Origin: Candidatus Micrarchaeia archaeon
Lineage (GTDB): Archaea; Micrarchaeota; Micrarchaeia; CAILAH01
Assembly (NCBI GenBank): GCA_038874595.1
Contig: JAVZCB010000002.1
Span: forward strand, 32,001 to 96,000
Direction of reading: 5' to 3'
Length of the DNA: 64,000 bases
Shown: positions 41,473 to 64,000 of the stretch, piece after piece
Layout of the letters: each line of letters begins with the position of its first letter
How positions within the stretch are numbered: position 1 is the stretch's first letter
Notes under the pieces: model-generated
Told to the model about the DNA's origin: nothing
The model's database searches: none
The model's input: the letters and a program-made list of their open reading frames with translations, nothing else
Position numbers and translations under genes: made by a program

Positions 41473-41489
41473 GAGACCACCAATATATT

Positions 41490-42818: not shown

Positions 42819-42834
42819 TTAAATCCCCTATGCT

Positions 42835-43142: not shown

Positions 43143-44792
43143 TTATGTTTCTTGACAAGCAGAATCAGAAGATGTTGGTGCTTGCCCTTCCTTACCCTGA
43201 CATATCCCTGCAAGCTTCTGGTCTTTCCTCTTCTCTGCTTCAAGCCGTTCAAGATCATATTCTTTCATGTCAACAAACTGCATCGTGTCAGCAAGCAGCG
43301 GGTGGACCTCCTTTATTTTCCTATACATATCCTGTGCAATCCTCCTGTAATCCCTATGCCCCTGCCTTCCGCTTCTCAGCTCAATTAAATGGAAAGCCTC
43401 ACGCAGGTTCATCCTGATATACCACCTAACCTTGTACGCGAAAGGCACAACGTACTGGGCGTGAATTGGGGATAAGGAATGCAGGCTCCAGAATACACGG
43501 GCCGCATTTTCAAGCGCCTCCCTAAACTCGCTTTCGTACCCCGCATCATCTATTTCATAAGGGATATCATATCCGTGAGCAACCGTAAGAAGCTGCCTCT
43601 CTTGCGTAAGTATCCTGTGCCTATGAAGGTCCCTGTAAGCACCAAAGTTTGCTGTGATATCAAAGAGGTAATAAGTGTTCTCAAATGCGCGCCCCGGCTT
43701 ATGCCGCCTGTTTGTGCGGTTCCCAACATAATCGCGCAACACCTTAATCTTTTCATCATCAGTCATTGAATTGGCTATCTCGATACACTTTTGCATGCTT
43801 ACACCAGCAGAGCCAGAATAGAGAATTGCCGCAATCACCTTCTCAGTGCCATCTTTATCATAATCAGCAAGAAAAACCGGCTCCTGGCCCCCAAAAGGCC
43901 TTAGCTCCTTAACAAAAGAAGGATAACTGCTGCTCCCAAAAAATTGCACTGCCTCATCACCGTGCTTTGAGTATGCCCTCTTCAGAAAAACAGGAAACAC
44001 TTTGCTGAGCTCATCGTGCATTTTTCTGCCGAGATGAGTTATCTCGCTGAGTTTTGACGCGCGAGATTTTGTGATGAGATACTCAAATGCACGGCCGTTC
44101 CCGAACAGGCCCACATTAGTAAGCGTAGATGCAGGAAGAAGCCCGCGCAGCGTGTCACACACCTTTGCACGTATTGCTGACTCGTATGCACGCCCGCTTG
44201 TGCTCTCATCACGCGGAAACCTTTCCTCAAAGTATTGCTGCATCTTCGGCATGAGCGCGCTGTACGTATCAAAAAGAAGGTTGCATGCAGATATGTACTC
44301 ATCTGCGTATTTGGTGCCCATTATATACTCATCACGATAGAACTTGTAGTTACCGTTCACTTTTTCATTGAAATATACATACCTGCTCGACTTCTCGAGT
44401 GGTGATATGCCTATCCGCGCATCCTCAATAAACTTGGTTGCAAGGTTGCTTATATTCTCAAGTGCAATGTGTGCGCCTGCAAGCTCGGCAACTGAGTCGT
44501 CTCCGTATTCAACCAGAACACGCTCATAAAAATTATCTGCCTTTGAGATTGCACCCTCAAGCCTGGTATCAGAGCTGGCCTGGGGATGGAGCTCTTCCAA
44601 GCGGATTTCAGAACCGCTTATGAACTCATCAAGCAGGAGGCGCTTCAGGCTCTTTGGTGAGCGGCTGTACCGTGAGAACAGCGTCCCTTTAACAACTTCT
44701 GGCATGTTTATGAGCACAAAAACGTCACCATCAACGTTTGTGCAATATCTTGAAAGCGCAGATTTCTCAAAATCCGTAAATTCTTCTGGCAT
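43143..44792 (-). CDS. thyX: FAD-dependent thymidylate synthase (double-domain ThyX)
   Basis: YGDDSVAEL, EKSSRY, RDLHRHR, ELRS..QGH. Confidence 0.9.
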   Translation of the reverse strand: MPEEFTDFEKSALSRYCTNVDGDVFVLINMPEVVKGTLFSRYSRSPKSLKRLLLDEFISGSEIRLEELHPQASSDTRLEGAISKADNFYERVLVEYGDDSVAELAGAHIALENISNLATKFIEDARIGISPLEKSSRYVYFNEKVNGNYKFYRDEYIMGTKYADEYISACNLLFDTYSALMPKMQQYFEERFPRDESTSGRAYESAIRAKVCDTLRGLLPASTLTNVGLFGNGRAFEYLITKSRASKLSEITHLGRKMHDELSKVFPVFLKRAYSKHGDEAVQFFGSSSYPSFVKELRPFGGQEPVFLADYDKDGTEKVIAAILYSGSAGVSMQKCIEIANSMTDDEKIKVLRDYVGNRTNRRHKPGRAFENTYYLFDITANFGAYRDLHRHRILTQERQLLTVAHGYDIPYEIDDAGYESEFREALENAARVFWSLHSLSPIHAQYVVPFAYKVRWYIRMNLREAFHLIELRSGRQGHRDYRRIAQDMYRKIKEVHPLLADTMQFVDMKEYDLERLEAEKRKDQKLAGICQGKEGQAPTSSDSACQET

Positions 44793-44876
44793 AATTCTTT
44801 TTGTACCTAAACTATTATATGTGAAAACATCCAAAAACCTATATAACGAAAAATGCAAAATAAGGAAAAATAGCTA

Positions 44877-47800
44877 TTAGTGGTTGCTGAGCCATTGCAA
44901 TATCCTTGTGTACACCACGTATACCTTATCATTGAAAGTACCAATGTTGCCCTGGTTATACACCTGCACTGTTGGACCGCTTGGTGTATATGAAAGCGAC
45001 CTTGAAGTAACGTTAAGAGGTGCATCTGCAACCAGTGTGCCGCCAACATAAACCTGCAGGCTCGCATTATACTGCTCAGGCAACGGGCTCGGCTCAAGGT
45101 TTGGGCTGCCTGTAGGCACGAATGATATCAGCGCCGAACCGCTCGCAGTCGTGTTTGAATATCCAATACCTATGTTGGAGACGTTAGTGTTCGTGTACTG
45201 CGGGAGTGCTAACGGGGGCAGGCCGTTCTGCTCAGTAACCTGGACACGTGCGTTTGGTATCGGTACAAGAGTAATATGGTTTAGCACCGTTACGTTAAGG
45301 CCGTATGGCTTGCCTGCCCTCAACGGGTAATTATTGCCCACAACCGTACCGTTGGTGTATACTATAATGTTGAGCTTCTCACCACCGCCACTTCCACCAA
45401 GCGTGAGCCATTCCTTAACCCTTGAGTATACCCTGTACACATCATCATTGAAATAGCCTACGTTGCCCCTGTTCGGCACTGAAACCGCTGATGAATTCGC
45501 ATAAGGCAGGTTCCTGCGCGATACAGTCATTGCAACCGTACCTTTGTGAATGCCATTCTTATACGCCCTTACTGTTATGTTGTATGCACCTACTTTCTCA
45601 GCAAGCACCTCTGCAGCGCCTGTAGGAACAACTGTCAATGAGATATTACCGTGTCCATCGGTGTGCGATTTAGCATAAACATAGTTGCTGACGTTTGAGA
45701 CGGTATACTGCGGAAGGGCAAACGGCAGGTAGCCGTTATATTCATAAATCCTTACCTCGCTGTTCGGCACACCTGTTCCATTAAAGTACTTCAAGCGTAC
45801 TGTAAGGTTATACGGCTCACCTGAATTATAGAAAGATGTTGTCTGCTTCCCATCAACGAGCGTGATTATTGTGTAGGACGGCGATTCTGTGTATCCTGAG
45901 AATGAGGTGACACTAAACCTCATTGTATTTGGTGTCAGGCATACTTGCGAGGCTGGTGAGTACTCGTAACCGGCTGCCAATATTTCAGCCTTGCTCTTTG
46001 GGAAACCTTCCGCCCTAAGCACGCCAACACCACTTTCTGGACCGCAATCGCTCACATTAATCGTTATTGTAGCGCTCTTGTTGAGCTGTGCTGCACCAGA
46101 GTGTGAGCTGTTTAATGAGACAAACTCCTTATCGACTATGATGTTTGTCCCGTTTGTTAGGTATGCGTATGTGATGTTAGCAAAGCCCCATTTCACACAG
46201 CCAGCTTCTGAGCTGTCCACGCATACTGATAGGTTCGTGAAATTGTTCGAGTTAGCGAATGTTGTTGAATAACCTATGTAGAAAGACGCGTTATATATAA
46301 GAACATCTGATAACCTGTTAAACTCTGGTTGGTTTGCACCTGCAGATGAAAATATAATCATTGGGAACACGCTTAGTGCGGGGTCATGCATTGAAACATC
46401 AGAAATATTATTCCAGTCAGAATCCTGGTTAAAGTATATTGAAGCCATTGACCCATAAACTTCCCCTATATGGATATTGTTTGCAATGGCATTCTCCATC
46501 ACAATCCCGTATAGGTTGTCTCCAAATGTATTATTGGTAAGGTTTGCATAATGCGTCCTATAAACATATGCCCCTAAGAAATTGCCTTCTGACCTTGAGG
46601 CGTTTATTCTTGAGTGGTTGCTGAATAGGATTATAAGACCGTTGTTTTGCAGCGTATCTGAGCCACGCAATGTTGTGTTTGTAACATTCGCCCTTATCGC
46701 ACCGCAAAGCACAAGCTCTGAGTACTGGCCGTTAGCAAGGTTTGTCGGGACGTTTACAAAAAGTATCGGCCTGTTGCCAGAGCCGGTTACATTCTGCAAT
46801 GTTGTGTTACATATGGCATAGTATGGAGAATCGATAACTTGAAGATCCATCATGCCGCTCTCCTGTATTATGTCGTGTGCAAGCCTTGTACCTGTAAAAA
46901 TACCACCTATGTAAACACCTATCACAGATGAGTTGTACACCCTATTATAAAGAAGGTTATTGTAGTTTCCTCCTATTACAATTCCTCTTGAGGCAAAAAC
47001 TACCCTGTTCCAGGAAACATTATTCAAGGAGCTCTGGTCCAAAGAGATGCCATCATAACATCTTGTAATATTGTTTGATGAAACGTTGGCATAGTGGCTA
47101 TTCCTTATGTAAATCCCATTCCCATCAGAAGAACTGCAATTTACAATCTTGTTGTATGCAACCAGTGTCCTGTTTGAGTTTTGGTCAACAAATATGCCTT
47201 TTGATGTATTGTAAACAAAATTCCTTACGTGGCGGTTGCCTATTGCGTTCTGAGACATTATCGCGGCCGCTGTAAATCCAATGCCCCCACTAATATTTTG
47301 TATGGAGTTATCAGTGTAATTATTGTTATATGAGCCCAGGATCAATATGCCACCGGCAACATCGCGCCCTAACAGGTTATAGATGTGGTTATCATATATC
47401 GTGCTGTTTGTTGTGCCAAAATCTACTATGCCTCCCACCATTACACCAGACGCTGTTGCCGAGAGGTCCTTTATAGTGTTGCCTCTTATTGTAACATTAG
47501 ATAGATTGCCGGCTGACGGGCCACTAATCATCAAAATCCCAAATACCTTGCTTGAGGCCGGACCTGGCACATCTAACGTTATATTCCTTATCGTGTTATT
47601 AGCAATCACAAAGCCGCTGGATTTGTTCATGCTGTCTCCCAGTATTATTCCGCTTACGGTTTCACCATCATCAAGCTCGCTCCTGAAGTTCTCGATTGTG
47701 TTGTTAACTATCCAAATGTTGTTGAAGTGGTTGTAATTGTTTGCATCCTCGCCAAAATTGATACCGTGTGGCTGCTTGCCGCTGTCTGCTGTGAAATTCC

Positions 47801-50800
47801 TGAAAATGTTATCTAATATTAGGATGTTGCGGGCTGGATAGGCTGCTTCAAAACCTGCCCTGTAGTTCATGAAAGTGCAGTTGCGTATTGTTATATTCTC
47901 TATGTAGGCTGGCACACCGCTGTAAACAAACATTGCTGTGCCATTTCTGTTACCGATGAGCGTGCTGCCGTTGCAGTCAAGGCCAGATTTTGTAGTAAAC
48001 AAGAATAAGTAACCATCATTTGTTGAGTTCCAGAACGCAGGAATGTGATAGGTATCCTTACAAAGGATAATTGGTGCGTTAACCATAAGCTGGATGGGGG
48101 AAACGCCTGATATGTTAGTAAGCCTGCCCTCCCACGTGCTATTATCAGAAAGATTTACACATTGCAAAGTTTCTGCAAGCGGCCCGAACGGGCTGCTAAA
48201 GTTAGTAATCTCATACGCTGTTATGGTATTTAAGATTGGGTTTAGTTCCTGCCGTGCAATAAACCCTTTCCTCTGCCAAGAACCTGCGCTACTGCTGTAT
48301 TTCCATATCCTGATATCAAACTCTGAATGGCCAGGTGGGACCATAGTATCCTCATAGTAAAATGTTAAGTTAAGCCGCGAGGTGGGTGATGTGTTCTGGA
48401 TTTCCAGGAATAACGGTGGGGTGGCCAGCAAATGGTCAACACCAAACGGCAAAAGTGCAGACGGCATCGTTGTATTGGAAATCACCACATCAATATCACT
48501 AAATGAAATGTGTGTATGGTTAAACCTCGAATTGTTGACTAATGTATGGGATCCTTGCAACGAGATATAATATACCCTGTTCGTGAGGTTTACCTGGGAA
48601 ATGTTCATGTTGTTAAATGTGTTATTCTTAGATTGGGCGATGACCACTACACCTTCAGGTATGCCCCATCCCTGGTATACATAAAGCGGGTATCTCCCCG
48701 TAAGGTTTTGCAGCCTGATATTATCAAATATATTGTTCCACGCCCCAAACATAACGATTGATGGCACAACAACGGAATTTATACAGGAAACGTTTGAAAC
48801 CTGTGTATTGTTGGTAAACATCATATAAAGGCACTGCAAATTCTTATCAGATGTGGAATTGCTTATGCTAATGTTTTTGGACCATATGAGGTTAATTGCG
48901 CGCATGTTACCTACATAATCTGGCGGTAGAATAGGCAGAAAGGGGTCTACGTTATTTAGACGCTTAAAAGTGTTGTTGTACGCACGGGAATTCTGCGTAA
49001 CAAAGAATTTTATACCTTGGAGGGTCTCACCTGTGACGTTCCTCACAGTTACATTATCTGAAAATCCAATATATACAACGTGAGATACCGAAGTTATACT
49101 AAGATTTTCAAATATGACATTTGAACAATCAATGCACGCATAGTAACCGCCGTTAGTGTTTGTTTCAACATAGTTGTGCTTGTCGTTCCCTGCCCAAGAA
49201 CAATAGTAGTATATGGGCTTTCCATTTATTGTATTTGAAGTGTCTATGTCATGCTCAAAATAGTCGTGTACGATAGGGCCCATTACCTCCCCATCATCAT
49301 ATGCAAGCCCGAAGTTCTCAAAATTATTCACAAATTTGTTATTGCGCATTATAAAATGCTTGAACCGTATTCCGCTGCCTCTAAAATTGTTTGTTATGTT
49401 GTTGTCCTGGAGTGTTGTGTTATGGGCGTGGACGTAAAGTGCATGGAAGAGATTATCAAAAGAGCAGTTAGTTACCTTAAACTTTTCTGCATAGCCAATA
49501 AAGTAGTTGCCATAGGGGTCACTGCCCGGTATCCTGCCTTCTATCCCGCCAGTCATATTATAGAAAACTGAGCGGTCAATCCACACATTAGAGACATTTC
49601 CGTGGTTATGGAAGCATATGCCCCCATATTCTATCCCACCATTTGAGCAATTCAAGTATGATATGTTTACATTGTAAACATTCGGGTAAAGATAGATGTG
49701 GGCGCGGTCGCCAAATGCCGCCACGCTCGCGTTTGAGTAGGTAATGTTTACGTGCCTCATCCGTATGTTGTATGTGCCCCAGAACAGAACCGAGGTGATA
49801 TTGTTTTTATGGAAGGATGAGTTCTCTATCCTGATGTTTGTTGAGTTTGCAATCCTTACAACTGCGAGCGGGTTGAAGACATTATTATCCGTACTCGCCC
49901 TGTGCAGCGTGAATTTGCTGTTAGAGATTGTTAAATCATCTGCAAAAACAGCCTGAACAGACTTATTGTTGTTTGTGCTTGTTAAGTTGTCAATGAGAAC
50001 TGATTGGGTTGCGTTTGAAAGGTTGAGTACCATATAAGAGTTGAACACACTTGTATCTCTTATGCGCAAATCACGTGATATGCTGGTTTTATTGCCATAA
50101 ATGTAGAAAGCAGTCGTGCTATTAACCACCCAGCTGCCTGTGAAATTGATGTGTGATGAAGCGTTTACGGCAAATCCCTGCGGCGTATTATATATGCTGG
50201 TGCCGATAAGCTCTGACTGGTTCGTATCTATCAGCCATATTCCATAGAGGCAATTGCTTACATTGCTGTTGCTTAAGGTCAGGTTGTTAATGTTCCATTC
50301 TGAAATAAAGGCTAAATCACACCTCGTGAAATTATTGCCTGATACTTGGTTATGGTCAGAGTTCTGGGTTATCTCAACACATATGTTTGGGATATTATAA
50401 AACCTGTTGTTATTGAAGGCAGAATAGTTTGTGCTTATTATTAAGGCGCCCCTGCTTCCAAAGGAATGAATCCTGTTTAAATTAACCAGCGCATGTGCTG
50501 AGTTCTCAATGCGTATACCTGCACCGTTTGTGAAGTTGTAGATATCGTTTAGTGTCACGCGGTCGCGGGTGCCGTACTCAATGTTGATGCCATAAGTGCA
50601 GTTATAGATTGTATTGTTGAGGAAAGTATTGTTTGAGCCGTCCTTTGAATATATCCCAGTGCCTGCAAGGATGCTGAATATAGTGTTATTAGCAACAGTA
50701 TTGTTATGGCTGTTATCCATCTCTATCCCGTACTGTGTCCCGTTAAATATCATGTTTCCTATGATTGTGTTGTTATATGAAGGGTCCAGATAAATGCCTG

Positions 50801-53333
50801 TAGAAATATTGTATATCACCACCCCCCTTATATGGGTGTTGTTTGATGAATTAACAACAATCGCCCTTGTTGTATTGAATATTGTACCGTTCATTATAGT
50901 AATGTTCTTCAGGCCGGGCACGACATATACACCGGTTGCCCCATCCCGAACATTATAACCATTCAAATCAAGTATGACGTTGCTTGAAGTTATTCCTATT
51001 ATTGCAAGTGTAGCACTGCCCTGCGAGTAATCCCTAGAAAGTCTAGTAACACCTGGCGAGGATATTGTCATATTGAAGCTGTTTTCATACTTGTTTACCG
51101 CAGCATAACCTGAGAATGAGGTTGCGTTGAACCTAAGTTTAGTGCTGGAGATACACTCCCTATAACCAGGTATAAATTCAATGCCTGTTGAGAGCACATC
51201 TGCTCTAGATAGCGGCAACGAAACTGGACTTCTATAAATTGTGAAGTCGTTGGGATTGGAGCATCCGCTCACTAATAATGTGACGTTTGCAGGGCCATCA
51301 AACTGTGATGCACCCCAGTGTGTACCATCCATAGATACAAAATCTGCCCCTATGAACAGGTTATCAATACCCCCGCCTCCTTGGTAGCCGAGGAATGCGT
51401 TTGTAATCTGCCTGAAGCTAAACATGATGCAGGTTGAAAGTGAATTATCATTACAAAGTGTAAGATTGGTAAAGTTCTGCGGGCGGTAGCCTGAAAAATC
51501 CCAACTGAATCCAACATACCTGGAAGTATTGTATAGGGTAATGTTATAAAACGCATTCGCATCTGGGAAAGTTGAGGGGGTTGTGTTTGAGAATTGTATT
51601 GCATACGTCCAGCTATAACCGTATGCAATGCTATGGAATATGGAGTTCGAAATAACGTTTTCTTTTGAATTGTCCTTCAATAAAATTGCGTTTACAGGGA
51701 AATATGAGATTGTATTGTTATCAAGCACACATTTGCTTGTGTTGTCAAGCATAATGCCTGTGCTGAACGGGCCGGTACTGCTAGATATTATATTATCCTT
51801 TGCAGTACTGCCATTTGATTCTACCAAGTGTATTGCATTAGTGCCTGATAGAAATATCGTGTTGTTAATGATTGTTATGTTAGGTGTTGGGGAATCACTT
51901 GGCCCTGGTGACCAAGCACGCTGTGAGCCGATAGCGTCGTACTGCGAGCCAGAGATGTAATTGCTTGAGATTAGGTTATGGCCAGAGCCATTCATTAGCA
52001 TGATACTATTGCTTCCACCAAGCAGATGGTTCCTTAAAATACGGGTGTAAATGCTGCTTGAGTCAAGCATAATATTCTGCCCGCCGTTGTTATACGCCGT
52101 GTTATTGGTAATGTTACAGTTCTTGGACCCTTTAAGATATATGCCAAACCCTGTGCTGCCTGATATGGTATTGTTTTCCAGCCGTGTGTAGTGTGATTTG
52201 AATATGCCTACACCAGTACCAAAGCCCAATATGTTGTTTATGTTGCTCACATTATTGCCTATAATTGAGTTAAGGCTGGAGGAATCCACATTTATTCCCA
52301 TACCATTTGTGCAGTGGCTGATGCTGTTATTATAGATTAGGTTATTAGATGAGCCAGAACCTATATCGATGCCGTGGCCACTGTTGTTGTATAGTGTGTT
52401 ATATGCAATGATGTTGCCAGTACTAGAGTCAAACAACCCTATGCCTTGGGCAAACCCTGAAACTGTATTGTTGTTTGAAAGGATGCGGTTGCTTGTTATG
52501 TTGCTGCTTAAAACCCCTGAGAAAATAATACCTGCATTGTTGTTGAAGCTTATAGTATTATTATGGAAAGAGCTGTAAGCGATTGTACCACCACCTATAC
52601 CATAGTTCCCGTTGTTGAATATTATGTTTTTTGAAATGTTCGCACTTGAAATTGTACCTATTTGAATACCAATATCATTATTGCCATAAATAGTATTGTT
52701 AAAAACTGTGAGGTTTATGCTGCTACCAAACGAAGCGCCTTTATCATTGTTATAAATAACATTACGAATAAGCCTGGTATTGTTTGCTGCAAAAACCTCA
52801 AACCCTGTCTCTTCATTATTGTGGATTTTGCTATCTGCAAGTGTAATGTTGTTTACAATATAGGCCATAATGCTTTTGTTGTTGCCGTATATGTCAACGT
52901 TCTGAACTGTTGTGTTGTTCAGCTTGTACATCCATATAGCAATTGGTGTTGAGGCGCCCGGTGCAGGTACGTAATTAAGGTAATCGTGTATGCTACAATT
53001 CTTGAAAGTTATATTAGTATTTATGACACTTGAACCGCCAAAAAAATCGTTCGGGTCACCTATGAAAACTGCAATTGCATCAAAAGCCCCAGTACCATCG
53101 ATTTCGTTTCCCTGGCAGTCTATTATTATATTTGAGGTATTAAAGAGCAGGCATACTGGCATTGAAGGGTGTATTATTCCATAAAGTGTGTCATTGATGC
53201 GATATTCAGTGTATGGGGTATCATATATACCGCAAGCAGATATGTTTGTGTATGCAAAAGAGACTGAGATGGCTAAAGATAAGACAGCAAAAGCTAATAC
53301 AAATAGTCTTAAGCACGTTGAGCATTCCCGCAT
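44877..53333 (-). CDS. Giant secreted parallel beta-helix (NosD/CASH-like) protein with two C-terminal 'B' domains
   Basis: 2818 aa; signal peptide; very many N.I.NN.I repeats; internal duplicated ...TSFSGY domain; no TM anchor. Confidence 0.9.
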   Translation of the reverse strand: MRECSTCLRLFVLAFAVLSLAISVSFAYTNISACGIYDTPYTEYRINDTLYGIIHPSMPVCLLFNTSNIIIDCQGNEIDGTGAFDAIAVFIGDPNDFFGGSSVINTNITFKNCSIHDYLNYVPAPGASTPIAIWMYKLNNTTVQNVDIYGNNKSIMAYIVNNITLADSKIHNNEETGFEVFAANNTRLIRNVIYNNDKGASFGSSINLTVFNNTIYGNNDIGIQIGTISSANISKNIIFNNGNYGIGGGTIAYSSFHNNTISFNNNAGIIFSGVLSSNITSNRILSNNNTVSGFAQGIGLFDSSTGNIIAYNTLYNNSGHGIDIGSGSSNNLIYNNSISHCTNGMGINVDSSSLNSIIGNNVSNINNILGFGTGVGIFKSHYTRLENNTISGSTGFGIYLKGSKNCNITNNTAYNNGGQNIMLDSSSIYTRILRNHLLGGSNSIMLMNGSGHNLISSNYISGSQYDAIGSQRAWSPGPSDSPTPNITIINNTIFLSGTNAIHLVESNGSTAKDNIISSSTGPFSTGIMLDNTSKCVLDNNTISYFPVNAILLKDNSKENVISNSIFHSIAYGYSWTYAIQFSNTTPSTFPDANAFYNITLYNTSRYVGFSWDFSGYRPQNFTNLTLCNDNSLSTCIMFSFRQITNAFLGYQGGGGIDNLFIGADFVSMDGTHWGASQFDGPANVTLLVSGCSNPNDFTIYRSPVSLPLSRADVLSTGIEFIPGYRECISSTKLRFNATSFSGYAAVNKYENSFNMTISSPGVTRLSRDYSQGSATLAIIGITSSNVILDLNGYNVRDGATGVYVVPGLKNITIMNGTIFNTTRAIVVNSSNNTHIRGVVIYNISTGIYLDPSYNNTIIGNMIFNGTQYGIEMDNSHNNTVANNTIFSILAGTGIYSKDGSNNTFLNNTIYNCTYGINIEYGTRDRVTLNDIYNFTNGAGIRIENSAHALVNLNRIHSFGSRGALIISTNYSAFNNNRFYNIPNICVEITQNSDHNQVSGNNFTRCDLAFISEWNINNLTLSNSNVSNCLYGIWLIDTNQSELIGTSIYNTPQGFAVNASSHINFTGSWVVNSTTAFYIYGNKTSISRDLRIRDTSVFNSYMVLNLSNATQSVLIDNLTSTNNNKSVQAVFADDLTISNSKFTLHRASTDNNVFNPLAVVRIANSTNIRIENSSFHKNNITSVLFWGTYNIRMRHVNITYSNASVAAFGDRAHIYLYPNVYNVNISYLNCSNGGIEYGGICFHNHGNVSNVWIDRSVFYNMTGGIEGRIPGSDPYGNYFIGYAEKFKVTNCSFDNLFHALYVHAHNTTLQDNNITNNFRGSGIRFKHFIMRNNKFVNNFENFGLAYDDGEVMGPIVHDYFEHDIDTSNTINGKPIYYYCSWAGNDKHNYVETNTNGGYYACIDCSNVIFENLSITSVSHVVYIGFSDNVTVRNVTGETLQGIKFFVTQNSRAYNNTFKRLNNVDPFLPILPPDYVGNMRAINLIWSKNISISNSTSDKNLQCLYMMFTNNTQVSNVSCINSVVVPSIVMFGAWNNIFDNIRLQNLTGRYPLYVYQGWGIPEGVVVIAQSKNNTFNNMNISQVNLTNRVYYISLQGSHTLVNNSRFNHTHISFSDIDVVISNTTMPSALLPFGVDHLLATPPLFLEIQNTSPTSRLNLTFYYEDTMVPPGHSEFDIRIWKYSSSAGSWQRKGFIARQELNPILNTITAYEITNFSSPFGPLAETLQCVNLSDNSTWEGRLTNISGVSPIQLMVNAPIILCKDTYHIPAFWNSTNDGYLFLFTTKSGLDCNGSTLIGNRNGTAMFVYSGVPAYIENITIRNCTFMNYRAGFEAAYPARNILILDNIFRNFTADSGKQPHGINFGEDANNYNHFNNIWIVNNTIENFRSELDDGETVSGIILGDSMNKSSGFVIANNTIRNITLDVPGPASSKVFGILMISGPSAGNLSNVTIRGNTIKDLSATASGVMVGGIVDFGTTNSTIYDNHIYNLLGRDVAGGILILGSYNNNYTDNSIQNISGGIGFTAAAIMSQNAIGNRHVRNFVYNTSKGIFVDQNSNRTLVAYNKIVNCSSSDGNGIYIRNSHYANVSSNNITRCYDGISLDQSSLNNVSWNRVVFASRGIVIGGNYNNLLYNRVYNSSVIGVYIGGIFTGTRLAHDIIQESGMMDLQVIDSPYYAICNTTLQNVTGSGNRPILFVNVPTNLANGQYSELVLCGAIRANVTNTTLRGSDTLQNNGLIILFSNHSRINASRSEGNFLGAYVYRTHYANLTNNTFGDNLYGIVMENAIANNIHIGEVYGSMASIYFNQDSDWNNISDVSMHDPALSVFPMIIFSSAGANQPEFNRLSDVLIYNASFYIGYSTTFANSNNFTNLSVCVDSSEAGCVKWGFANITYAYLTNGTNIIVDKEFVSLNSSHSGAAQLNKSATITINVSDCGPESGVGVLRAEGFPKSKAEILAAGYEYSPASQVCLTPNTMRFSVTSFSGYTESPSYTIITLVDGKQTTSFYNSGEPYNLTVRLKYFNGTGVPNSEVRIYEYNGYLPFALPQYTVSNVSNYVYAKSHTDGHGNISLTVVPTGAAEVLAEKVGAYNITVRAYKNGIHKGTVAMTVSRRNLPYANSSAVSVPNRGNVGYFNDDVYRVYSRVKEWLTLGGSGGGEKLNIIVYTNGTVVGNNYPLRAGKPYGLNVTVLNHITLVPIPNARVQVTEQNGLPPLALPQYTNTNVSNIGIGYSNTTASGSALISFVPTGSPNLEPSPLPEQYNASLQVYVGGTLVADAPLNVTSRSLSYTPSGPTVQVYNQGNIGTFNDKVYVVYTRILQWLSNH

Positions 53334-53446
53334 AATGCCTGCACCACCTTAATTATATATAATATAATTTAAATACCTGCCATATAATAAGGGCGGCTTT
53401 TAATAAGAGGATCAATACTAAAGACCAAGACGGCCAAGCATACTCA

Positions 53447-55369: not shown

Positions 55370-55387
55370 CAGTACACCTTTTGCATC

Positions 55388-57091
55388 TTATGGAGCAACT
55401 AATTTTTTGGTTATGCTGAACATCTCGTACAACCAGTCAAAGACCGGCAAAACATAATCCTTAGACTGAATTTCCTTGCTGTTCACCCAGCCGGGGTCTG
55501 CGCATGATTTATCAGAGACAAGAAGAGGAACGGTTGTCGTGAACGAGCCATTGTAATATACAGTAACAGGGGTCGTAACATACATTGAGTAGTTGCCTAT
55601 CCTGGAAGATAGGATTGGGCCACGCACCGGGTCGTTGTATAGCTTGTTGCAGGTAGGTGCTATCACAAGCTTTGCATACCCGCTCGTGTTCCCAGTGATT
55701 GTGCCCCTTACAGTGCTTGAAACACCTATCAGGGTTCCTGAACTGTTCCAAATCTGTGTTGGTGTGAATGGATTAAGGCCATTGATTTCAGTTATAATAA
55801 GCACGGGGCTCGGATATATGTTGCCATCTGAGTCGTTTATATACATCGTAACATTATAAGGCCTGCCAGCATATGGGAATATGTTTGTCTTGTTGTTATC
55901 TATGAGTATGTAAAGCGTGCGCACCGGATTGACCACAAGAGTGCCTGAAACAATGTTATTCTCATCGCACTCAACAAGCACATTATTCCTGTCCGCATGC
56001 GCGGTAAAAATGTAAGAGCCGCTGCGTGCTGTGTTTGAAAAAGTGACTGAGCGGGTTGTTGAGCCGCCTGGCAGGAGGTTCTCTGTAATTATCCAGCTTG
56101 TACTGTTTACATAGCCACCAGGCCCTGTTATGTTGAGTGTCAAGTTGAAATCTGTAGTTATTGGGACATTCCCTGTGTTTGTAAGTGTGATTGTGGCAAC
56201 CGATGAGCTCCCTGAATAAATCGGGTTTGCACTGAACCCCAGCGTTGGAACGATGTTAGAACCTATGCATAGCGCAGTACCAATACCGTTAACGACGAAA
56301 TAGCGCGTGTATGCGCGCTGGTCGTTTACGGTCTCGTTGAAGCGCAGCTGGACTGGGAGTTGTGATGAGGAGTTGATTATTTTTGCATCACAGCAAGAGC
56401 TGCCATGGTCATCACTACATAACCCTACTATCAGTGCACGGCCTTTCGAAGAACTTATGCCCCAGTCAGGATCTGAAGGCGATTTAACTTGCGTGCCTGC
56501 ATCTGTCTGAAACGTAATTGCACTGATACTGCCAGTAACGTTGCCTGTTGTGTGCGAATATGTTGCTGTTGTAGAATACGTGCCGCGCAACGTGCCGTTT
56601 TTATAATCCAAGAATGCAAATGATGGGTTTGAGCCATCGATGCTGTTGGAATACAATATGTACGGCCTGCCGGGGAATGCTGAAACATATATTATAGGAG
56701 TCCTTGTGAAATCCTTGAACTGCGAGAATGCAAACTTGTCAACGGGCGTCATATAGCACGTGCCCCCAGCTGAGATTGATGCGTTTACGAGGGTTGCTGA
56801 TGACCCTGCTGTAAGGTCCTTGCTTATGGTGATATACGTGGCTGTCCCGGAAGTATTCATTGCATAAACTGCTGCAACGTACTTCTTACCTACGTCACAT
56901 ATTTTTATTGTAAAATCAGGGTTGGTTGCCGGGTCAGGCAACACATCAACATACACTTTCTGTGTGTATGATGCAGTAACGTTCCACACGTGGCCTGATG
57001 AATTTGTAATGTACGCTGCCTGTGGGAATGCCTGCGAAAGCAGCATAAAAAGGAACACTAAGACCTGCAATAAATGCAAACGACCTGACAT
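55388..57091 (-). CDS. Secreted protein ('C' domain, CARDB-like Ig domain, 'B' domain)
   Basis: Signal peptide; ITLTNTGN...ADRNNVLVECDENN CARDB signature. Confidence 0.85.
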   Translation of the reverse strand: MSGRLHLLQVLVFLFMLLSQAFPQAAYITNSSGHVWNVTASYTQKVYVDVLPDPATNPDFTIKICDVGKKYVAAVYAMNTSGTATYITISKDLTAGSSATLVNASISAGGTCYMTPVDKFAFSQFKDFTRTPIIYVSAFPGRPYILYSNSIDGSNPSFAFLDYKNGTLRGTYSTTATYSHTTGNVTGSISAITFQTDAGTQVKSPSDPDWGISSSKGRALIVGLCSDDHGSSCCDAKIINSSSQLPVQLRFNETVNDQRAYTRYFVVNGIGTALCIGSNIVPTLGFSANPIYSGSSSVATITLTNTGNVPITTDFNLTLNITGPGGYVNSTSWIITENLLPGGSTTRSVTFSNTARSGSYIFTAHADRNNVLVECDENNIVSGTLVVNPVRTLYILIDNNKTNIFPYAGRPYNVTMYINDSDGNIYPSPVLIITEINGLNPFTPTQIWNSSGTLIGVSSTVRGTITGNTSGYAKLVIAPTCNKLYNDPVRGPILSSRIGNYSMYVTTPVTVYYNGSFTTTVPLLVSDKSCADPGWVNSKEIQSKDYVLPVFDWLYEMFSITKKLVAP

Positions 57092-57160
57092 AACTACACC
57101 TGCTTCTACTGCACTTTTTTTGTATGTTGCACATTCTCACCAATACTTTATATTGCTTAA

Positions 57161-58747
57161 TCATATTGTTGAAATGGACGCCCCCATATTTGAAAGCACC
57201 ATATTGATGTTCTGCAGCGAAGATGCTATCAATGTTGCTGTTGCCTCATCCATATCCTCATCCATTGCCGCCGGCGGCTCAAGCTGCGTATCTACAGGAA
57301 AAGAAACCTCTGCAAACTGGACATTGCTTTTGTAAAGCCTTATTGTCAGGTTTGCGTTGTTATTATACTTTGTCGGGATTACCACGAGCAAACTTCTTGT
57401 GTCCAAAAGCTGTGCATTTGAGTAGTTCTTATCCGGCTGTTGCGGGACGACCATTATGAAGCCTGAATCCTCGCGGACAGTCATATCTGCAATAAATGGT
57501 GAACCAAGATTGTCAAGCGCTGTAACGTTGATTATATTTGGTGCGCCTGCCTTGAGTACCGGCACGGCTGTGTGAGTCCCATCCTCCGATATGTTTATTG
57601 CATGGCGTTTCATCTTACCTTCTGAAATCCACTTGGTTGCTGTCGCTGCAAGGGCGTTCATGTTCTGCACAGAGCTCTTTACCTGGCTGGAGTATTGGGG
57701 GCTTACAAGCGAGCTGCGATATGTGGGTGAAAGCGAGGCATAATCTGTTATGTTAAGCCGCTTAATGCAATAAATGGGGCTTGTAACTTCTACATATATC
57801 TCATAGCCATACGAGTCAGGTATGTTATAGCGTGTTGGTGAGACAGCATACATCGCCTGGCCGGTGCCATCTGCAACTGCATAGCCTCGCTGGATGTGTG
57901 TGTTTGCACCAAATAATGGAAGTAGAATATTACGGCCATTAACTTCAGAGAGCCGCAACTGTGCGTTTGGGATTACCGCACCGCTTCCTAAATCGCGCAC
58001 AACAACACGCAGCTCGTAAGGCACACCTGTTTTCGGGAAGTGTGTTGTATAAGTGCCGTCTATGTATGTGTCTATGACGCATTCAGGATAAACATAAAAG
58101 TAATAACTCTCGTTCCTGGGCATCATATATTGGAAATCAAAAACGGTTGTGTTGTAGCCTACCTGGGGGCCAAGCGTTACTATAAAGAGTGGCTCAACGC
58201 GCGTGCCGTTGTTGAATTTCAATATGCTCAAATTGATATTTGGGTTTAGTATTATGTAGGGGCACGGGATTACAAGGCCGCTAATATTGCAGGAGTGGTA
58301 AATGCATGCTGGGTTGCAGAAAGTATAGAGCGGGCTCTCAATGAACTTCATAAAATCTAGGCCTGCAAATGTCGTAAAGCCGGAAAACATCCCGCCATTG
58401 CCGAAATCTGCGGGTACTGGCGACTGAAAATGGCTTGGCGAGGGACGCACCGGCAAGCGGGTAAGTATTGCACTCTGGCCTGGGAAACTCCCATTGATAT
58501 ATGTTGTGTAAACTGTTGCATTTTTGGCATATACAAATCCGATCGGTTTTGAAACGTCCGGAGATACCGAAACGTTCATCCAGCCAACAACCGCTGCCCA
58601 ATGTGAAGTTGGCATATTAACTGATAGGTTTGAGCTGGAGATGTTACCGCCGCGCGTAACCATGCTGCCTGCGTGAGCCGCGTGCGCTGCAAGGATTATT
58701 AAAATGAATAAAAATAGAAAAGATGGGCACTGCGACGCAACCATCAT
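57161..58747 (-). CDS. Secreted protein ('A' domain plus two 'B' domains)
   Basis: Signal peptide from MMVASQ; RGGNISSSNL...HWAAVVG and YYFYV like the 224-aa protein; two G.PY/G.PN repeats. Confidence 0.85.
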   Translation of the reverse strand: MMVASQCPSFLFLFILIILAAHAAHAGSMVTRGGNISSSNLSVNMPTSHWAAVVGWMNVSVSPDVSKPIGFVYAKNATVYTTYINGSFPGQSAILTRLPVRPSPSHFQSPVPADFGNGGMFSGFTTFAGLDFMKFIESPLYTFCNPACIYHSCNISGLVIPCPYIILNPNINLSILKFNNGTRVEPLFIVTLGPQVGYNTTVFDFQYMMPRNESYYFYVYPECVIDTYIDGTYTTHFPKTGVPYELRVVVRDLGSGAVIPNAQLRLSEVNGRNILLPLFGANTHIQRGYAVADGTGQAMYAVSPTRYNIPDSYGYEIYVEVTSPIYCIKRLNITDYASLSPTYRSSLVSPQYSSQVKSSVQNMNALAATATKWISEGKMKRHAINISEDGTHTAVPVLKAGAPNIINVTALDNLGSPFIADMTVREDSGFIMVVPQQPDKNYSNAQLLDTRSLLVVIPTKYNNNANLTIRLYKSNVQFAEVSFPVDTQLEPPAAMDEDMDEATATLIASSLQNINMVLSNMGASISTI

Positions 58748-58754
58748 CTTAGAA

Positions 58755-60509
58755 CTACCTCTTTCTCTTAGCAGTCTCGTGCTCCTCTGCCTGCCCGCCC
58801 CTCCTTGTAGCAAAATATATCACCACTATCAGGAGAATTATCACTAATATTATTAAGCCAATCATCAGCGGGTCTATGCCTTTATCACTTGCAATACGCT
58901 GGAGTGGTACTACTGACTCTTTTGTTTTTTGCAGGAACCCTTCCCTTGCACCATATTTGAGTGAGACCTTAACTTCTTTGTTCGCCTCCAAATCAGAAGG
59001 GGATAAGCTAGCTGGCAGTGTTACCACAGTAATTGAGCCTACTGGCACTTTGGTTGTGGCTCCACCCTTTAATGTTGTTAAGCTTCCGCCCATAACAAGA
59101 GATACTGATGCCTGCACGTACGCATCCTGCTCGCCTGTGTTCTTAATGCTTATTCTTAAATCGCCATCTTTATATGAGACACCTGCAACGTCAACATCTG
59201 AATTATCCATAAACGAATACGTTGCAATATCAATTGACTTTGCAGTAAACGCTGTAAGGGATTTTGGGGTTTCCCCATATCTTACTATAACATCACCGGT
59301 AATCTTACCCTCCTCAATAGATGGCAATTCATAATCATACTCAAGCCCTTTCGTCTCGCCGCGCTCTATGAGTAAGGGTTTCGTGTCTCCCAGCACTTTC
59401 AGCTCAGTATCGTCCTGTTTTATGTGTATTTCTGTCTGGTAATATTCCGGCCCTTCTGCCTTGCTTGTGATTTCAAGCTCGATTTTGCCAGTCGCCTTGT
59501 TGTATTTCAGGGAATCTATACTCATCCCAAGGACGTATGAGGGGACCGGGAAAATATCAAGAGGGAATGTGCCCTGGGTGCCAGGCACTGACTGCCCAAA
59601 CTTTACTATTACAGCAATTGATTTGTCGCTACCCTCGCTCTGCAGCTGGGCCTGCACTCTTTTCTTGAGATCATATGCCGGGTTTATGAGATTGCTGCCT
59701 ATAAGGATATATGAGCCCAGCTTGCCCGTGCGGGCATTTTCAAGCACAAAATCATAGGTAGAATCTGCAATTATAGGTGATATCAATACCACTGGAAGCG
59801 TGCCATCAACCATCCCCTCTTCTATAAACGTGCCATCGGACATTATCGCCTGCTTAACACCGTGCTCATTTACCATTTTTGAAACCAATTCAACGTTATC
59901 CTCATACTTGTCTTCCCCTTTGCCTATTACAGTTGGGGAGTACTTCTCTAGCTTCTTTCTTGTTGCTGAATCTACATATCCGAAAATTGTTACTTGCGGC
60001 GAATCCTTCCTATCAAGAAATTTGACAACATTATCAACGTTTCCACTATACGCAAATATGACGTAAGATTTTGTCATTTTTGCATATGAAATCACTGAGA
60101 TTGCATTCTGGCCAAAAGAAGGGTCTATTATTATGAATTTGTTTACTCCTGACTTCTCTGCAAGGTCCAGGTTTGTCTTAAACCCATCTGCGGATACACT
60201 GTATAAAGTTACCTTGTTTGATTTTCTCAGCTCATTTTCAAGGAATGTCGTAACTGGGGTGTTTGCGGATTGTATAAGCAAAATATCCCTGCCTGAACCT
60301 ACCTTGGCTGCTGTAAGCTGATAGTTACCATTAAACGGCATAAACCGTGCGCCTATACCTATTGCGTTTGCATAGTAAATGCCTGATAATACATCAAGGC
60401 CGCTTTTTGAGTTTATAACAACATAATTCTCTGCAAACGCGAGCGGAAATGCAAACAAGAGCAACATCAATACAGCATGCTTGCTTATCATCATAACACC
60501 CCTACACAC
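58755..60509 (-). CDS. Membrane-anchored protein with cell-wall-binding-repeat-2-like N-terminal region and Ig-like domains
   Basis: Signal peptide; VINSKSGLDVLSGIYYA and IGKGEDKYEDN resemble CWB2 repeats; C-terminal TM with basic tail. Confidence 0.75.
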   Translation of the reverse strand: MCRGVMMISKHAVLMLLLFAFPLAFAENYVVINSKSGLDVLSGIYYANAIGIGARFMPFNGNYQLTAAKVGSGRDILLIQSANTPVTTFLENELRKSNKVTLYSVSADGFKTNLDLAEKSGVNKFIIIDPSFGQNAISVISYAKMTKSYVIFAYSGNVDNVVKFLDRKDSPQVTIFGYVDSATRKKLEKYSPTVIGKGEDKYEDNVELVSKMVNEHGVKQAIMSDGTFIEEGMVDGTLPVVLISPIIADSTYDFVLENARTGKLGSYILIGSNLINPAYDLKKRVQAQLQSEGSDKSIAVIVKFGQSVPGTQGTFPLDIFPVPSYVLGMSIDSLKYNKATGKIELEITSKAEGPEYYQTEIHIKQDDTELKVLGDTKPLLIERGETKGLEYDYELPSIEEGKITGDVIVRYGETPKSLTAFTAKSIDIATYSFMDNSDVDVAGVSYKDGDLRISIKNTGEQDAYVQASVSLVMGGSLTTLKGGATTKVPVGSITVVTLPASLSPSDLEANKEVKVSLKYGAREGFLQKTKESVVPLQRIASDKGIDPLMIGLIILVIILLIVVIYFATRRGGQAEEHETAKRKR

Positions 60510-60669
60510 TGTTTCTATTCCCTATTTTTATTACATTACTATAGCGTAATATTATATAAAGGAATCATACCTGCAGGAAATTGCCGTAGCAGGAATATAA
60601 TACCATAATACCGGCTTATTAATAGCACGCTCTTTCCAGGATACGTGCATCAGCGCATTAATGGATAAT

Positions 60670-60702
60670 AAGAAGAAATGCAAAAAAGAAAGAAAAGAGG
60701 TT
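60670..60702 (-). terminator. T-rich archaeal terminator after the 224-aa gene
   Basis: Minus strand ...cctcttttctttcttttttgcatttcttctt directly after the stop codon. Confidence 0.55.
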
Positions 60703-60708
60703 TCCAGC

Positions 60709-61383
60709 TTATGCGAGCTCTGCGTAGAAGTAGTATGTGGTCAGGCCTGTATCTGGCGTTGTTGGAACCATCAGCTCATAGTGTGCTGGGTTGCCAAGGT
60801 AGTTGTTGCCTGTTGCGTTTGCTGCTACGCAGAATGCATAATTTGTTGTGTCTGTAATTGCACAGGTCCTGAATGTATCTGCTGCATTGTTGCCTGTGTC
60901 AACTGCTGGAGCACTGTTAATAGCACCCTGGCCTGCAAAGTTCAGTGTGCATGTCCCGGTAAGTGTGTTGGTTGCGTTGTCTGCCGCATTACCTAAGTTA
61001 TAGAATGAGTTGACGCCTGCAGCAGTTGCAGCAGCTGCACCAAGGAAATTGAATGCACCACTGTTTGATGCACATACATAACCACTGTTAATCGTGGTTA
61101 CAGACCACCTGTAAACATAGTTTGTTGTGCTGCCTGCAGCAGAGGTTAAGTAAATCGTACCTGTCAGGTTTCCAAAGAAGGCTGCCCACCTGTCAGTTAA
61201 TGATGTTGCTGAGAGGTTCAGGTCTGAGATGTTACCACCTTCAATGGATATCCCCTGTGCTATCGCACTGCCCTGCCACCTAGCATAATAGCTTTGGGTG
61301 GAGTTGGTTGCGTTGTATGGTGTTGCGAACGCGAGGCCGAACACCATCAATACTCCAAACATGGCCATGTATCGCCAATTCAT
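60709..61383 (-). CDS. Small secreted Ala/Thr/Asn-rich 'A'-domain protein, putative major filament subunit
   Basis: Signal peptide; EGGNISDLNL...RWAAFFGNLTGTIYL...YVYRW...YELMVP...YYFYAEL; strong RBS AGGTGA. Confidence 0.85.
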   Translation of the reverse strand: MNWRYMAMFGVLMVFGLAFATPYNATNSTQSYYARWQGSAIAQGISIEGGNISDLNLSATSLTDRWAAFFGNLTGTIYLTSAAGSTTNYVYRWSVTTINSGYVCASNSGAFNFLGAAAATAAGVNSFYNLGNAADNATNTLTGTCTLNFAGQGAINSAPAVDTGNNAADTFRTCAITDTTNYAFCVAANATGNNYLGNPAHYELMVPTTPDTGLTTYYFYAELA

Positions 61384-61416
61384 ATTGTATCACCTGGAAC
61401 GTATTCTGCAGTAAGG

Positions 61417-61460
61417 TTTAAATATCTTATATGATATTCCTTCCCACAAAGAAGGATATC
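61417..61460 (-). promoter_or_regulatory. TATA box with adjacent inverted repeat upstream of the 224-aa gene
   Basis: Minus-strand tatttaaa at 61417-61424; gatat(t)ccttc-N7-gaaggatatc at 61433-61460. Confidence 0.45.
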
Positions 61461-61553
61461 TATCTGGTAAGAGTTACTGGCGTGAAATGATTGGTATTAA
61501 TAAGTATTTTGGTTGTAGAAAACTATTTATTTTGGGCCTGAGTAAATTACCTC

Positions 61554-62918
61554 ATGAAAACGCTAAAACACTCTAAGATTAATGATATAAAAGAGAACGA
61601 GCTGAAACAGACCTCTAATAAAGTTGAGTTTGCGAGGCTCTTTAAAGATATGCTAAAAGATGAAAATAAAGAAAGCCTGCTCACCAAATTAAAGGAGAAA
61701 GGCAAAAAGGCAATGATCACGCTTATCGCCGTCTCAATGCTTTATACTACTAACATAAACTGCGGTGAGAGTGTTCCACAACCGCCTGTCGTTGAGGATG
61801 CGGTAATAGCAAAGGATGCGTCTCCAAAAGAGGATGCTACTGCTCCAGATGATGTTAGTGACGCTGGGAAGGATGTACTGGAAGATGCTAAAGGGGATGT
61901 AGATGTTGATAGCGGGGTGGGTGATGATACCGCTACGGACGCTAAAGAGGATGTAAATGACGACAGTGGGATTGATGCTGGGGAACAGGTTGATGATGTA
62001 GGGCTTGATGCAGATGATACTATTGATGTTAACTGGCCGGATGCGGGAGTGGATGCTCAGGATGTTCCTGATACGGGTGATACTGGCGAGGTAACAGATG
62101 TATGTACGCCAGGAGAGTGGGAAACAAAAGCTGAGGATAAGAGCAGGGATGATATTTTTATATCAAAAGAAGGTACAAGCATAGGTGTGAATACAACGTT
62201 TAACGTAGAATACGAAACTAACGGCTGTGAAATCAACAATGAACATATAACTCGCATAATATACAAATTTTCACCCTCTATAAACCTAGATAAAATGTCG
62301 CTTTCCCAGGTGCAACTAGGGCTGTGTACAACTATTGATAATTGCGATTTGCTGGAGCTTGAATATCCCGGAGAAACTTCTGCGATAAAGCTGGCACAAA
62401 CTTATGGGTTCGGGCTAGAGAAGGAAATAATATTCGGCATAAAAAGGATTGTTGATAAATCAAATGAGTTTACCGGGTGCCATCCAATCTCACCAAAATG
62501 CTACACAATGAAAGAAACAAATGGTACAACTGAGAGGGATGTTCAGGTATGCTGCTTTGGGAATGGCCAGCAGCCTATCGATTTGTACTATAATAAGGTA
62601 AGGTATAGCGTTGCAACCACAACAGGTGCCACTTGCTTAAGTGCAGATGACAGGTGCTTGGAGCTGCTTACATTTACACCTAATGAAGACATAAGCAAAA
62701 TAAAGTACAGATTTTCCGTTGCCATCGACCAGCCATATATGATGGTTCAAGGAAAAACAATATGCTACGGCGACTCTATGCAGGTACCGCTGGGTAACGT
62801 TACAAAAGAGTGTGTTCCTTTCGAAAAAGATGGTAAAGTTTTCTCTGTGGAATATGTAGAGAAAGATGCAAATGGGGATATCAATAAAATCGCAATGAAG
62901 GTAAACAACAAGGAATAG
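61554..62918 (+). CDS. Lipoprotein-like surface protein with Asp-rich linker
   Basis: KGKKAMITLIAVSMLYTTNINCGE, DAG-rich acidic linker, Cys-rich C-terminal domain. Confidence 0.85.
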   Translation: MKTLKHSKINDIKENELKQTSNKVEFARLFKDMLKDENKESLLTKLKEKGKKAMITLIAVSMLYTTNINCGESVPQPPVVEDAVIAKDASPKEDATAPDDVSDAGKDVLEDAKGDVDVDSGVGDDTATDAKEDVNDDSGIDAGEQVDDVGLDADDTIDVNWPDAGVDAQDVPDTGDTGEVTDVCTPGEWETKAEDKSRDDIFISKEGTSIGVNTTFNVEYETNGCEINNEHITRIIYKFSPSINLDKMSLSQVQLGLCTTIDNCDLLELEYPGETSAIKLAQTYGFGLEKEIIFGIKRIVDKSNEFTGCHPISPKCYTMKETNGTTERDVQVCCFGNGQQPIDLYYNKVRYSVATTTGATCLSADDRCLELLTFTPNEDISKIKYRFSVAIDQPYMMVQGKTICYGDSMQVPLGNVTKECVPFEKDGKVFSVEYVEKDANGDINKIAMKVNNKE

Positions 62919-62944
62919 AAGATTTGCTTTTCACTTTTATTTGA

Positions 62945-64000
62945 TTACTCCAGTTCTATATATATAGTTATTGTGTTCCCTGCGCCTTCATATGTTGCGA
63001 GGGTATACGGAATCATTGCAGCGTACATATACTCACCGTACGTGTCAGGTTCTGGGGAAGGACTTGCCTTGACTGCCCATACCGTGGATTGTGTGCCTGA
63101 ATACTCACTACCACCATCTGATGTGTCCCATAATATACCTGTCTTGAATTGTGTTGGTCGTAGTGATGAGTTTGCAACGGGGACGTTTTCAACTGTCCTC
63201 TTGTAGATTGCATAACTGTCTGTCTCTTTTGGAATCGTCCCATCAATTGAATATGTCTTGTTTATATTATCTGGGAATGATGTACTTGAAAATGCCGTGT
63301 CAAGCTCAATGAAATCGTTAGAGCTCGCTCCACCGGAAGTATCCCTGCCTATTGCCTGAAGCGCTTGCCAATCAATTATCGAATCACCATCTGCAAAGTA
63401 CACGTTAACAGCCTTTGCATCATTCCACTTGTAGACATATCTTGAAAGCCCTCCTTCACTGTCTGTCAGATAAATGCTCCCATTAACATTTCCAAAAAAT
63501 CTCTGCCAGAGGCCTGAGCACGAGAATTCACAACCATAATGGTTATTCTCGGCCCACTGGTACCAGTAGTCACAGTAGTCTTTCTGGCCGCTGCTTGATA
63601 TCATTCCGTTAATATAGTTGTTTTCAATATCCATGTTATCATTAAAGCATATGTAGTTGCTTGAAAGTGTATAAGTGAGGCTGTTCTGGTCAAGATAGAT
63701 TCCCTTAACGGTGTTTCTTGATATATTATTACCACTTAGGAAAATGGTGTTGCTGTTCACTGAATTTATACCGTACGTGTTTGAAACTACTGTGTTGTTG
63801 TTTGCGTAAACACGTACTGAAGAGATAATATAGACACCCCCATACAATGCGCTCGGATTCCTGATGTAATTAAACTCAATGAAGTTATCCTCGCTTACTC
63901 CAAGGAAGTGCACTCCAGAATACTTGTTGTCAATAAAGGTGCTGTTTGCAATCAGGTTATATCCTGTACCATCAAGCATTACACCGTGTTGTGTATTATT
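62945..64000 (-). CDS. Partial (runs off right edge) beta-helix protein with C-terminal 'A' domain
   Basis: Frame stays open upstream of the listed Met to the window edge; NosD-like repeats, then WQRFFGNVNGSIYL...YVYKW...YAAMIP...IYIELE. Confidence 0.88.
   Translation of the reverse strand, partial: NNTQHGVMLDGTGYNLIANSTFIDNKYSGVHFLGVSEDNFIEFNYIRNPSALYGGVYIISSVRVYANNNTVVSNTYGINSVNSNTIFLSGNNISRNTVKGIYLDQNSLTYTLSSNYICFNDNMDIENNYINGMISSSGQKDYCDYWYQWAENNHYGCEFSCSGLWQRFFGNVNGSIYLTDSEGGLSRYVYKWNDAKAVNVYFADGDSIIDWQALQAIGRDTSGGASSNDFIELDTAFSSTSFPDNINKTYSIDGTIPKETDSYAIYKRTVENVPVANSSLRPTQFKTGILWDTSDGGSEYSGTQSTVWAVKASPSPEPDTYGEYMYAAMIPYTLATYEGAGNTITIYIELE

Follow-up and report, generated by a model that had tools for sequence, protein, structure and literature searches.

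How DPANN archaea locate their hosts and stay attached to them is not yet understood, and cryo-ET has shown thin filaments, without molecular identity, on Micrarchaeota cells (PMC11329633). Does the gene cluster described here encode an appendage of this kind, and how would its parts be joined? The cluster lies in a window of 64,000 nucleotides (the whole stretch of DNA analysed, C2:32001-96000) of a 918-kb genome that is 93.5% complete. Since the named homologs of this genome's proteins belong to Ca. Micrarchaeota, Anstonellaceae and Bilamarchaeaceae, the organism is, judged from its sequence, a Micrarchaeota-type DPANN archaeon. An initial annotation had read the cluster as seven co-oriented minus-strand genes encoding a surface appendage made of three daisy-chained domains, A, B and C. 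The seven open reading frames are all where it had placed them, but their series is broken by a plus-strand gene of 454 aa (Table 1). The beta-helix protein that it recognized at the window's edge is real, but the frame there encodes just its final 351 residues; the complete protein has 4862 aa, and its gene extends 13.5 kb past the window. The one gene of the seven that it left unlinked belongs in fact to a CWB2-repeat family and is the most constant partner of A. From sequence comparison and structure modelling, we think it likely that the locus encodes a strand-linked surface fibre; that it encodes either such a fibre or a short strand-linked stalk is highly probable.

Table 1. Features of the cluster, in window positions unless a contig is named.
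Feature	Position	Strand	Remark
Small A protein, 224 aa, cleavable signal peptide, without anchor	60709..61383	-	probable major fibre subunit
Codons for A residues 42-64, predicted donor segment with GGN[IV] motif	61192..61260	-	trimer interface, conservation
CWB2-repeat / Ig-like / C-terminal TM protein, 584 aa as called	58755..60509	-	start probably 60494
Base A'-B-B, 528 aa, no TM	57161..58747	-	donor-only A variant plus two B modules
Adaptor C-CARDB-B, 567 aa, no TM	55388..57091	-	domain profiles
Membrane anchor C-Ig-(Ig-Ig)-TM-TM, 640 aa	53447..55369	-	domain and TM searches
2818-aa beta-helix giant with C-terminal B-B	44877..53333	-	Beta_helix/NosD matches; adhesin-like
Last 351 aa of 4862-aa beta-helix giant (C2:94945-109533)	62945..64000	-	probable tip adhesin
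Acceptor-only A domain, final ~200 residues of 4862-aa giant	about 62945-63550	-	profile comparison, residue classes
Orphan 454-aa gene within cluster	61554..62918	+	probably outside system

The sharing of A, B and C between proteins held up in profile-profile comparisons of families built in this analysis, with E values from 3e-9 to 3e-21. The small A protein matched the N-terminus of the base family (98.5%, E 2.9e-15) and the C-terminus of the 4862-aa giant's family (99.2%, E 2.4e-19), and the C domains of the adaptor and anchor families matched each other (96%, E 3.2e-9); comparisons between different domains (A vs B, A vs C, B vs C), made as negative controls, gave 0.07-0.12%. Scores of the B1/B2-giant profiles were set aside because two partial base proteins were in the set. 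A single B profile recovered exactly the five copies that had been proposed, two in the base, one in the adaptor and two in the 2818-aa protein (E 1e-27 or better), and the CARDB domain of the adaptor and the TM segments of the anchor were likewise found. None of the outcomes that the initial annotation had named as speaking against its reading was observed. The B module is an Ig-like sandwich with a helix of ~25 residues, and its structural matches are generic Ig-like (Z 5-7.6). The A family comprises 1173 clusters at 50% identity, the nearest Atlas clusters being unnamed proteins of Woesearchaeota and Nanobdellota. Its members fall into four classes: stand-alone subunits of ~225 aa, bases with an N-terminal A that is short of the first 22 mature residues, giants with a full A, and giants whose terminal A is short, without the GGN strand. 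In the large fusion matches, which reach 5626 aa, A is strictly C-terminal. Eight A proteins are present in the genome, including those of a second cassette on contig C5.

How might the small A protein interact with itself? Its residues 21-45 form an extension, residues from about 46 to 62 the donor strand and residues 63-224 the core. In the monomer model residues 20-61 were unplaced and the remainder formed a confident beta-rich core; the donor segment was unplaced in the monomer model of the base as well. When several copies were modelled together, as the initial annotation had proposed, three A chains assembled head-to-tail with a score of 0.69 against 0.04 for the best control. This score is a model confidence, and three copies cannot show the length of a fibre; in the calibration, 20 of 30 solved pairs and 1 of 23 single chains attained the mark, counts that are only roughly valid for the A trimer. 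The trimer runs agreed in at least 88% of contacts, with a partner pLDDT of at least 80. Residues 42-64 were inserted into the next subunit, residues 21-41 being unplaced, and residues 55-57 touched strand 66-73 as well as residues 103, 202 and 219 of the neighbouring copy. In the model these contacts read as a donor strand completing the neighbour's sheet. Further top-ranking pairs were W93-D135, L79-W66 and I77-T63. The predicted interface is asymmetric, polar and linear and leaves the ends open, and its best pairs include the invariant residues T63, W66, G71, W93 and D135 (5/6, from 116 sequences). No sequence relative of A was found in the PDB up to E 10, so recall of a solved complex by the model is unlikely. 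The monomer had no fold match in a Foldseek search of the PDB (best E 1.1), its best VIA match had a Z of 3.2 (rmsd 3.1, 69 residues aligned), viral structures gave a best E of 0.08, and no match of A to known pilins was found in sequence or in fold. Because the monomer model lacked the donor strand, these failed searches do not establish a new fold.

A polar chain has two different ends, and the classes of A differ accordingly in their conserved residues. Conservation of the GGN motif is 91-100% among subunits, bases and full tips, and the short tips are without it. For the acceptor residues L79 and W93 it is 97-100% among subunits; bases, that of the window included, have lost them, and the short tips largely retain them (L in 81%, W or Y in 87%). 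Base proteins thus keep the donor strand without the acceptor hairpin, and tips do the reverse. From this reciprocal loss of acceptor residues and GGN motif we conclude that, as read from the sequences, each of these classes has a single function, donation in bases and acceptance in short tips, as expected of the two ends of a polar chain. In 17 of 42 bases the hairpin is replaced by a second donor-like motif (p<0.05; 11% of subunits have one), 33-38 residues downstream and mostly at one fixed offset; it was undetectable in the base of the window. That base was modelled with a pLDDT of 88 and with its N-terminal strand free (residues 23-44), and its matches, in fold searches that bore mainly on the B part, were generic Ig/MG sandwiches only, all in B. 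The roles first proposed for the three A proteins are thereby strengthened: the A-B-B protein as base by its donor-only A and free strand, the beta-helix giant as cap by its acceptor-only A, and the small protein as polymerizing subunit by the trimer model and the class-wise conservation. Against this scheme, about 60 fusion proteins with a full A combine donor and acceptor features; they may be in-line minor subunits or alternative tips.

The same parts would also serve a fixed display complex, as proposed for WxL/Csc clusters, a short stalk in which strand exchange connects the base to a giant adhesin through one A spacer or a few. The parts list is the same (a small protein, a membrane partner and large proteins that have the small protein's domain at their end), the giants are long enough to be stalks on their own, and giant-BB proteins bypass A altogether. 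We nevertheless regard a short stalk as unlikely, since the modelled self-association of A is head-to-tail with open ends and nothing in the model limits its length, the A gene has an AT-rich box upstream and a T-tract downstream of its own, and up to four A paralogs stand in tandem (L097:6668-9717). A rough codon-bias score placed A at the top of the cluster (rank 116 of 848) and is too weak to use.

The system is not adequately described by three daisy-chained domains. Its conserved core is, on sequence grounds, a set of four genes, namely the small A, the CWB2/Ig/membrane protein, the base, which carries A at its N-terminus, and a giant with A at the C-terminus, and the B and C domains are optional: among 121 genomes searched from the phylum, the full A-B-B protein is present in 11 and the core in 27. 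The clustering in other genomes that the initial annotation had anticipated was indeed found, the order A, CWB2 protein, base, giant recurring in dozens of loci. Strong stand-alone A matches and strong CWB2-family matches occurred in the same 27 of 27 genomes, though the 121 genomes are related and mostly incomplete, so that the co-occurrence is inflated by relatedness and is not an independent statistic. Neither family was found in the two most sampled families of the phylum (0/38 and 0/22), and the CWB2 gene adjoins A in nearly every locus. PF04122 was matched by 48 of 67 members of the CWB2 protein's family at E 0.05 or better (best 3.7e-8), the protein of the window itself giving no match, and CARDB by 22 of 67, on the Ig part. 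A GG-x-TNLDLA stretch in this family was considered as a donor motif and rejected, as it falls on the usual CWB2 helix. The CWB2 protein of the window has no N-glycosylation sequon, compared with 7-228 in the remaining proteins of the cluster; sequons are scarce throughout its family, which fits a sheltered part of a machine. We infer that it is the likeliest assembly platform or chaperone.

In clostridia, CWB2 anchors surface proteins to wall polysaccharide. In line with this role, A might be a sorting or capture tag that the CWB2 protein recognizes, tethering passengers singly to envelope glycans, with the small A as a free accessory. The strictly C-terminal position of A in giants and its strict co-occurrence with the CWB2 protein agree with such a tag, which would leave unexplained the donor-only membrane-anchored bases, the reciprocal loss of residues and the homo-oligomer interface; we consider it improbable.

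The core cassette is apparently not confined to DPANN archaea, because it is also found on ANME-2c-like contigs. On one of these the four-gene core has flanks 94-95% identical in DNA to a contig without the cassette at this site (L126 vs L128). A protein encoded on that second contig is on record for Ca. Methanogaster ANME-2c ERB4 as well; the ANME-2c assignment rests on neighbour genes and not on a binned genome. The cassette lies between an ELP3-like gene and a fumarase gene in L126. Five further related contigs carry A, base and CWB2 genes, and four of them the tip. The CWB2 family had no match on viral contigs, and plasmids had no match for an A homolog. This patchy presence, together with the empty-site allele, speaks against the possibility that A forms or decorates a two-dimensional envelope layer, as an S-layer accessory or sheath. 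The secreted proteins do look heavily glycosylated, and Ig, CARDB and CWB2 modules are common in envelope proteins. We hold this reading very improbable, however: a separate S-layer gene (PF05124) is present at C4:90915-93653, 0 of 116 A proteins match an S-layer family, and the interface in the model is linear and polar, with specialized pieces for the two ends.

How would the fibre be held at the cell? Single-chain bases have a C-terminal hydrophobic segment in 33 of 33 cases. The A'-B-B base has none, and wherever its locus extends far enough, genes for C-CARDB-B and C-TM proteins follow it. The sequences therefore suggest that the B/C trio replaces the single-chain membrane-anchored base as an optional split anchor. 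Physical linkage of base, adaptor and anchor is supported because A' is fused directly to the anchor's C-terminal half in L034/L073 and L075. Anchoring through B and C modules, as first proposed, is in line with gene order, single-chain bases and these natural fusions. In the B tree, which does not discriminate between possible partners, the two B-B pairs arose separately; that a two-plus-one pairing of B arose twice suggests a three-helix dock. The 2818-aa giant does not seem to share the B hub to which the initial annotation had assigned it. Giant-BB genes directly precede a type-2 adaptor and anchor in L112 and L113, and such a pair exists in this genome 50 kb away, outside the window (C2:134649-138740); the giant would thus probably dock on this paralogous C-B adaptor. 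A 570-aa Cys-rich, Kazal-like protein precedes the type-2 pair (together C2:134649-140536), and a gene of similar size is found there in G131. A module of ~117 aa occurs four times in the 4862-aa giant (L001:946-15534), and one of ~120 aa is common to this protein and the 2818-aa giant; neither has a Pfam name.

We compared the cassette with known surface structures. That it is not type IV pilus or archaellum machinery, as the initial annotation had argued, agrees with the lack of a prepilin motif and of an assembly ATPase in the cassette. By inspection no protein of the cluster has a class III signal peptide, the N-termini ending in A-x-A and the Ala next to the mature chain being almost invariant, and the three PF00437 genes of the genome are on other contigs. 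In chaperone-usher pili (FimA/FimH, PapA/PapG/PapH) the tip consists of an N-terminal adhesin and a C-terminal acceptor-only pilin domain, donor strands are N-terminal and the terminator donates only. The cassette has the same polarity of tip, donor strands and terminator, and an N-terminal donor strand is predicted to complete the next subunit, with class-wise conservation; unlike these pili it has no usher, outer membrane, sequence match or reported fold match, and no gene matched an usher or a PapD-family chaperone in Pfam or NCBIfam. The Pam pili of CPR bacteria belong to small host-dependent cells and combine Sec-exported subunits, donor-strand links, an acceptor-only tip (PamT), a TM-anchored terminator with an N-terminal strand (PamR) and membrane-tethered helpers (PMC13278184). 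The cassette resembles them in all these respects and in having no ATPase or usher, but the Pam pilin has two domains, a chaperone-usher-like Ig fold and a donor strand in the linker, whereas A has one domain and an N-terminal donor; Pam has PapD-like chaperones where the cassette has a CWB2-repeat partner, and in the cassette the tip is joined to a passenger thousands of residues long. The haloarchaeal tafi (TafA-G) are encoded by an operon with a major subunit, a two-domain tip and a TM anchor, with predicted strand exchange (PMC11821415). They share with the cassette the archaeal operon, the predicted strand exchange and a single domain common to subunit, tip and TM anchor, but use Tat and a dedicated peptidase, TafD, and in the tafi model the tip donates and the anchor accepts, opposite to the polarity inferred here (PMC11821415). 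A has no RR motif, and the window's cluster has no peptidase gene. AbpA and TasA are glycosylated subunits of about 200 aa with a signal peptidase I site and an N-terminal donor strand, and the ABP operon has no dedicated peptidase (PMC9245690). These features recur, or are predicted, in the cassette, which differs in its dedicated tip and base classes and in that no TapA/AbpB-like gene was recognized; PF12389 matched 0 of 116 A members, and no solved subunit in the PDB matched in sequence. The WxL/Csc systems of Firmicutes consist of a small protein, large proteins with the same C-terminal domain and an Ig-bearing TM partner. The cassette has this architecture, with a CWB2-based partner instead; the WxL domain (PF13731) was matched by 0 of 116 A members, and a WxL identity (Atlas feature score 0.75, below noise level) was rejected. 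The S-layer and hamus-type families PF05123 and PF05124 had no match in A members, and the genome's PF05124 gene is elsewhere. As far as sequences and models indicate, the cassette would work like the donor-strand pili (Pam, chaperone-usher, tafi, ABP) but lacks a defining feature of each. No published description of the A family or cassette was found in the literature searched, which covered few subscription papers.

The fibre favoured here would be of a non-type-IV, ATPase-free kind, joined by donor-strand complementation. Its subunits would cross the membrane through Sec and be processed there by the general signal peptidase, and the GGN[IV] strand at the N-terminus of each A would enter the groove of the next, more distal subunit, the modelled joint being locked by the W93-D135 and L79-W66 contacts. 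Extended to a filament, such a chain would carry at its distal end the giant beta-helix protein, whose C-terminal A can presumably only accept, and at its proximal end the base, whose A would be limited to donating, since another segment, in many cases a second, internal donor motif, takes the place of its acceptor hairpin. A TM helix of its own would hold the base at the membrane or, here, B-B:B and C:C docking to the TM anchor, as gene order and fusions suggest. Assembly would most likely take place on the CWB2 membrane protein. If chaperone-usher and Pam pili are a guide, the tip may come first and the base terminate and anchor the fibre, whose likely role would be to display glycan-binding passengers for attachment to partner cells or aggregates. 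We give appreciably less than even weight to the wider reading of an independently evolved class of archaeal pilus, with a subunit fold of an unsolved type, a CWB2-derived assembly factor, swappable passengers both at the giant tip and in line, plug-in B/C anchoring, a role in DPANN host attachment and, as a variable island, in ANME-2c aggregation. The cassette is a concrete candidate for attachment of DPANN archaea to their hosts and supplies a candidate subunit of 200 residues, with specific residues, for polymerization tests; it would assign a function to a family of >1000 protein clusters without a name, and to many archaeal giants ending in A. Its occurrence on ANME-2c-like contigs, alongside an allele with an empty site, makes it a candidate for consortium adhesion too, in anaerobic methane oxidation.

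Several further observations concern the genome and the A loci. The orphan plus-strand gene had no A, B or C match, and none among 40 relatives had a match to it; its charged N-terminus, hydrophobic segment, Cys and Asp-rich 'DAG' repeats recall lipoproteins. A close relative has a further gene, of 225 aa, in its place, and C5:90289-91113 has, by eye, a similar N-terminal layout. Downstream of the cassette (window 38531-44858) lie ThyX (Pfam Thy1) and, by eye, a SufB/SufC/SufD-like operon, unrelated to it. The second complete core cassette (G000 C5:2387-7027) has a TM base, a CWB2 paralog and a small A, and the giant-like frame beside it runs off the contig start. Three unlinked passenger-A fusions (C5:11397-14213, C5:46863-48998 and C4:126741-129059), two with a full and one with a short A, suggest exchangeable tips or in-line passengers. 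Elsewhere, one base reaches 2238 aa (L065:4696-11412), one A is split by an insertion of ~170 aa (L123:8753-9895), and a subunit gene (L074:9204-9922) and a base gene (L117:5797-7358) are each in two frames, by frameshift or assembly error. Very divergent A-fusions with CWB2-like neighbours were seen in other families, at L070:8260-12876 and L071:15911-19749 and are possibly a distant subtype.
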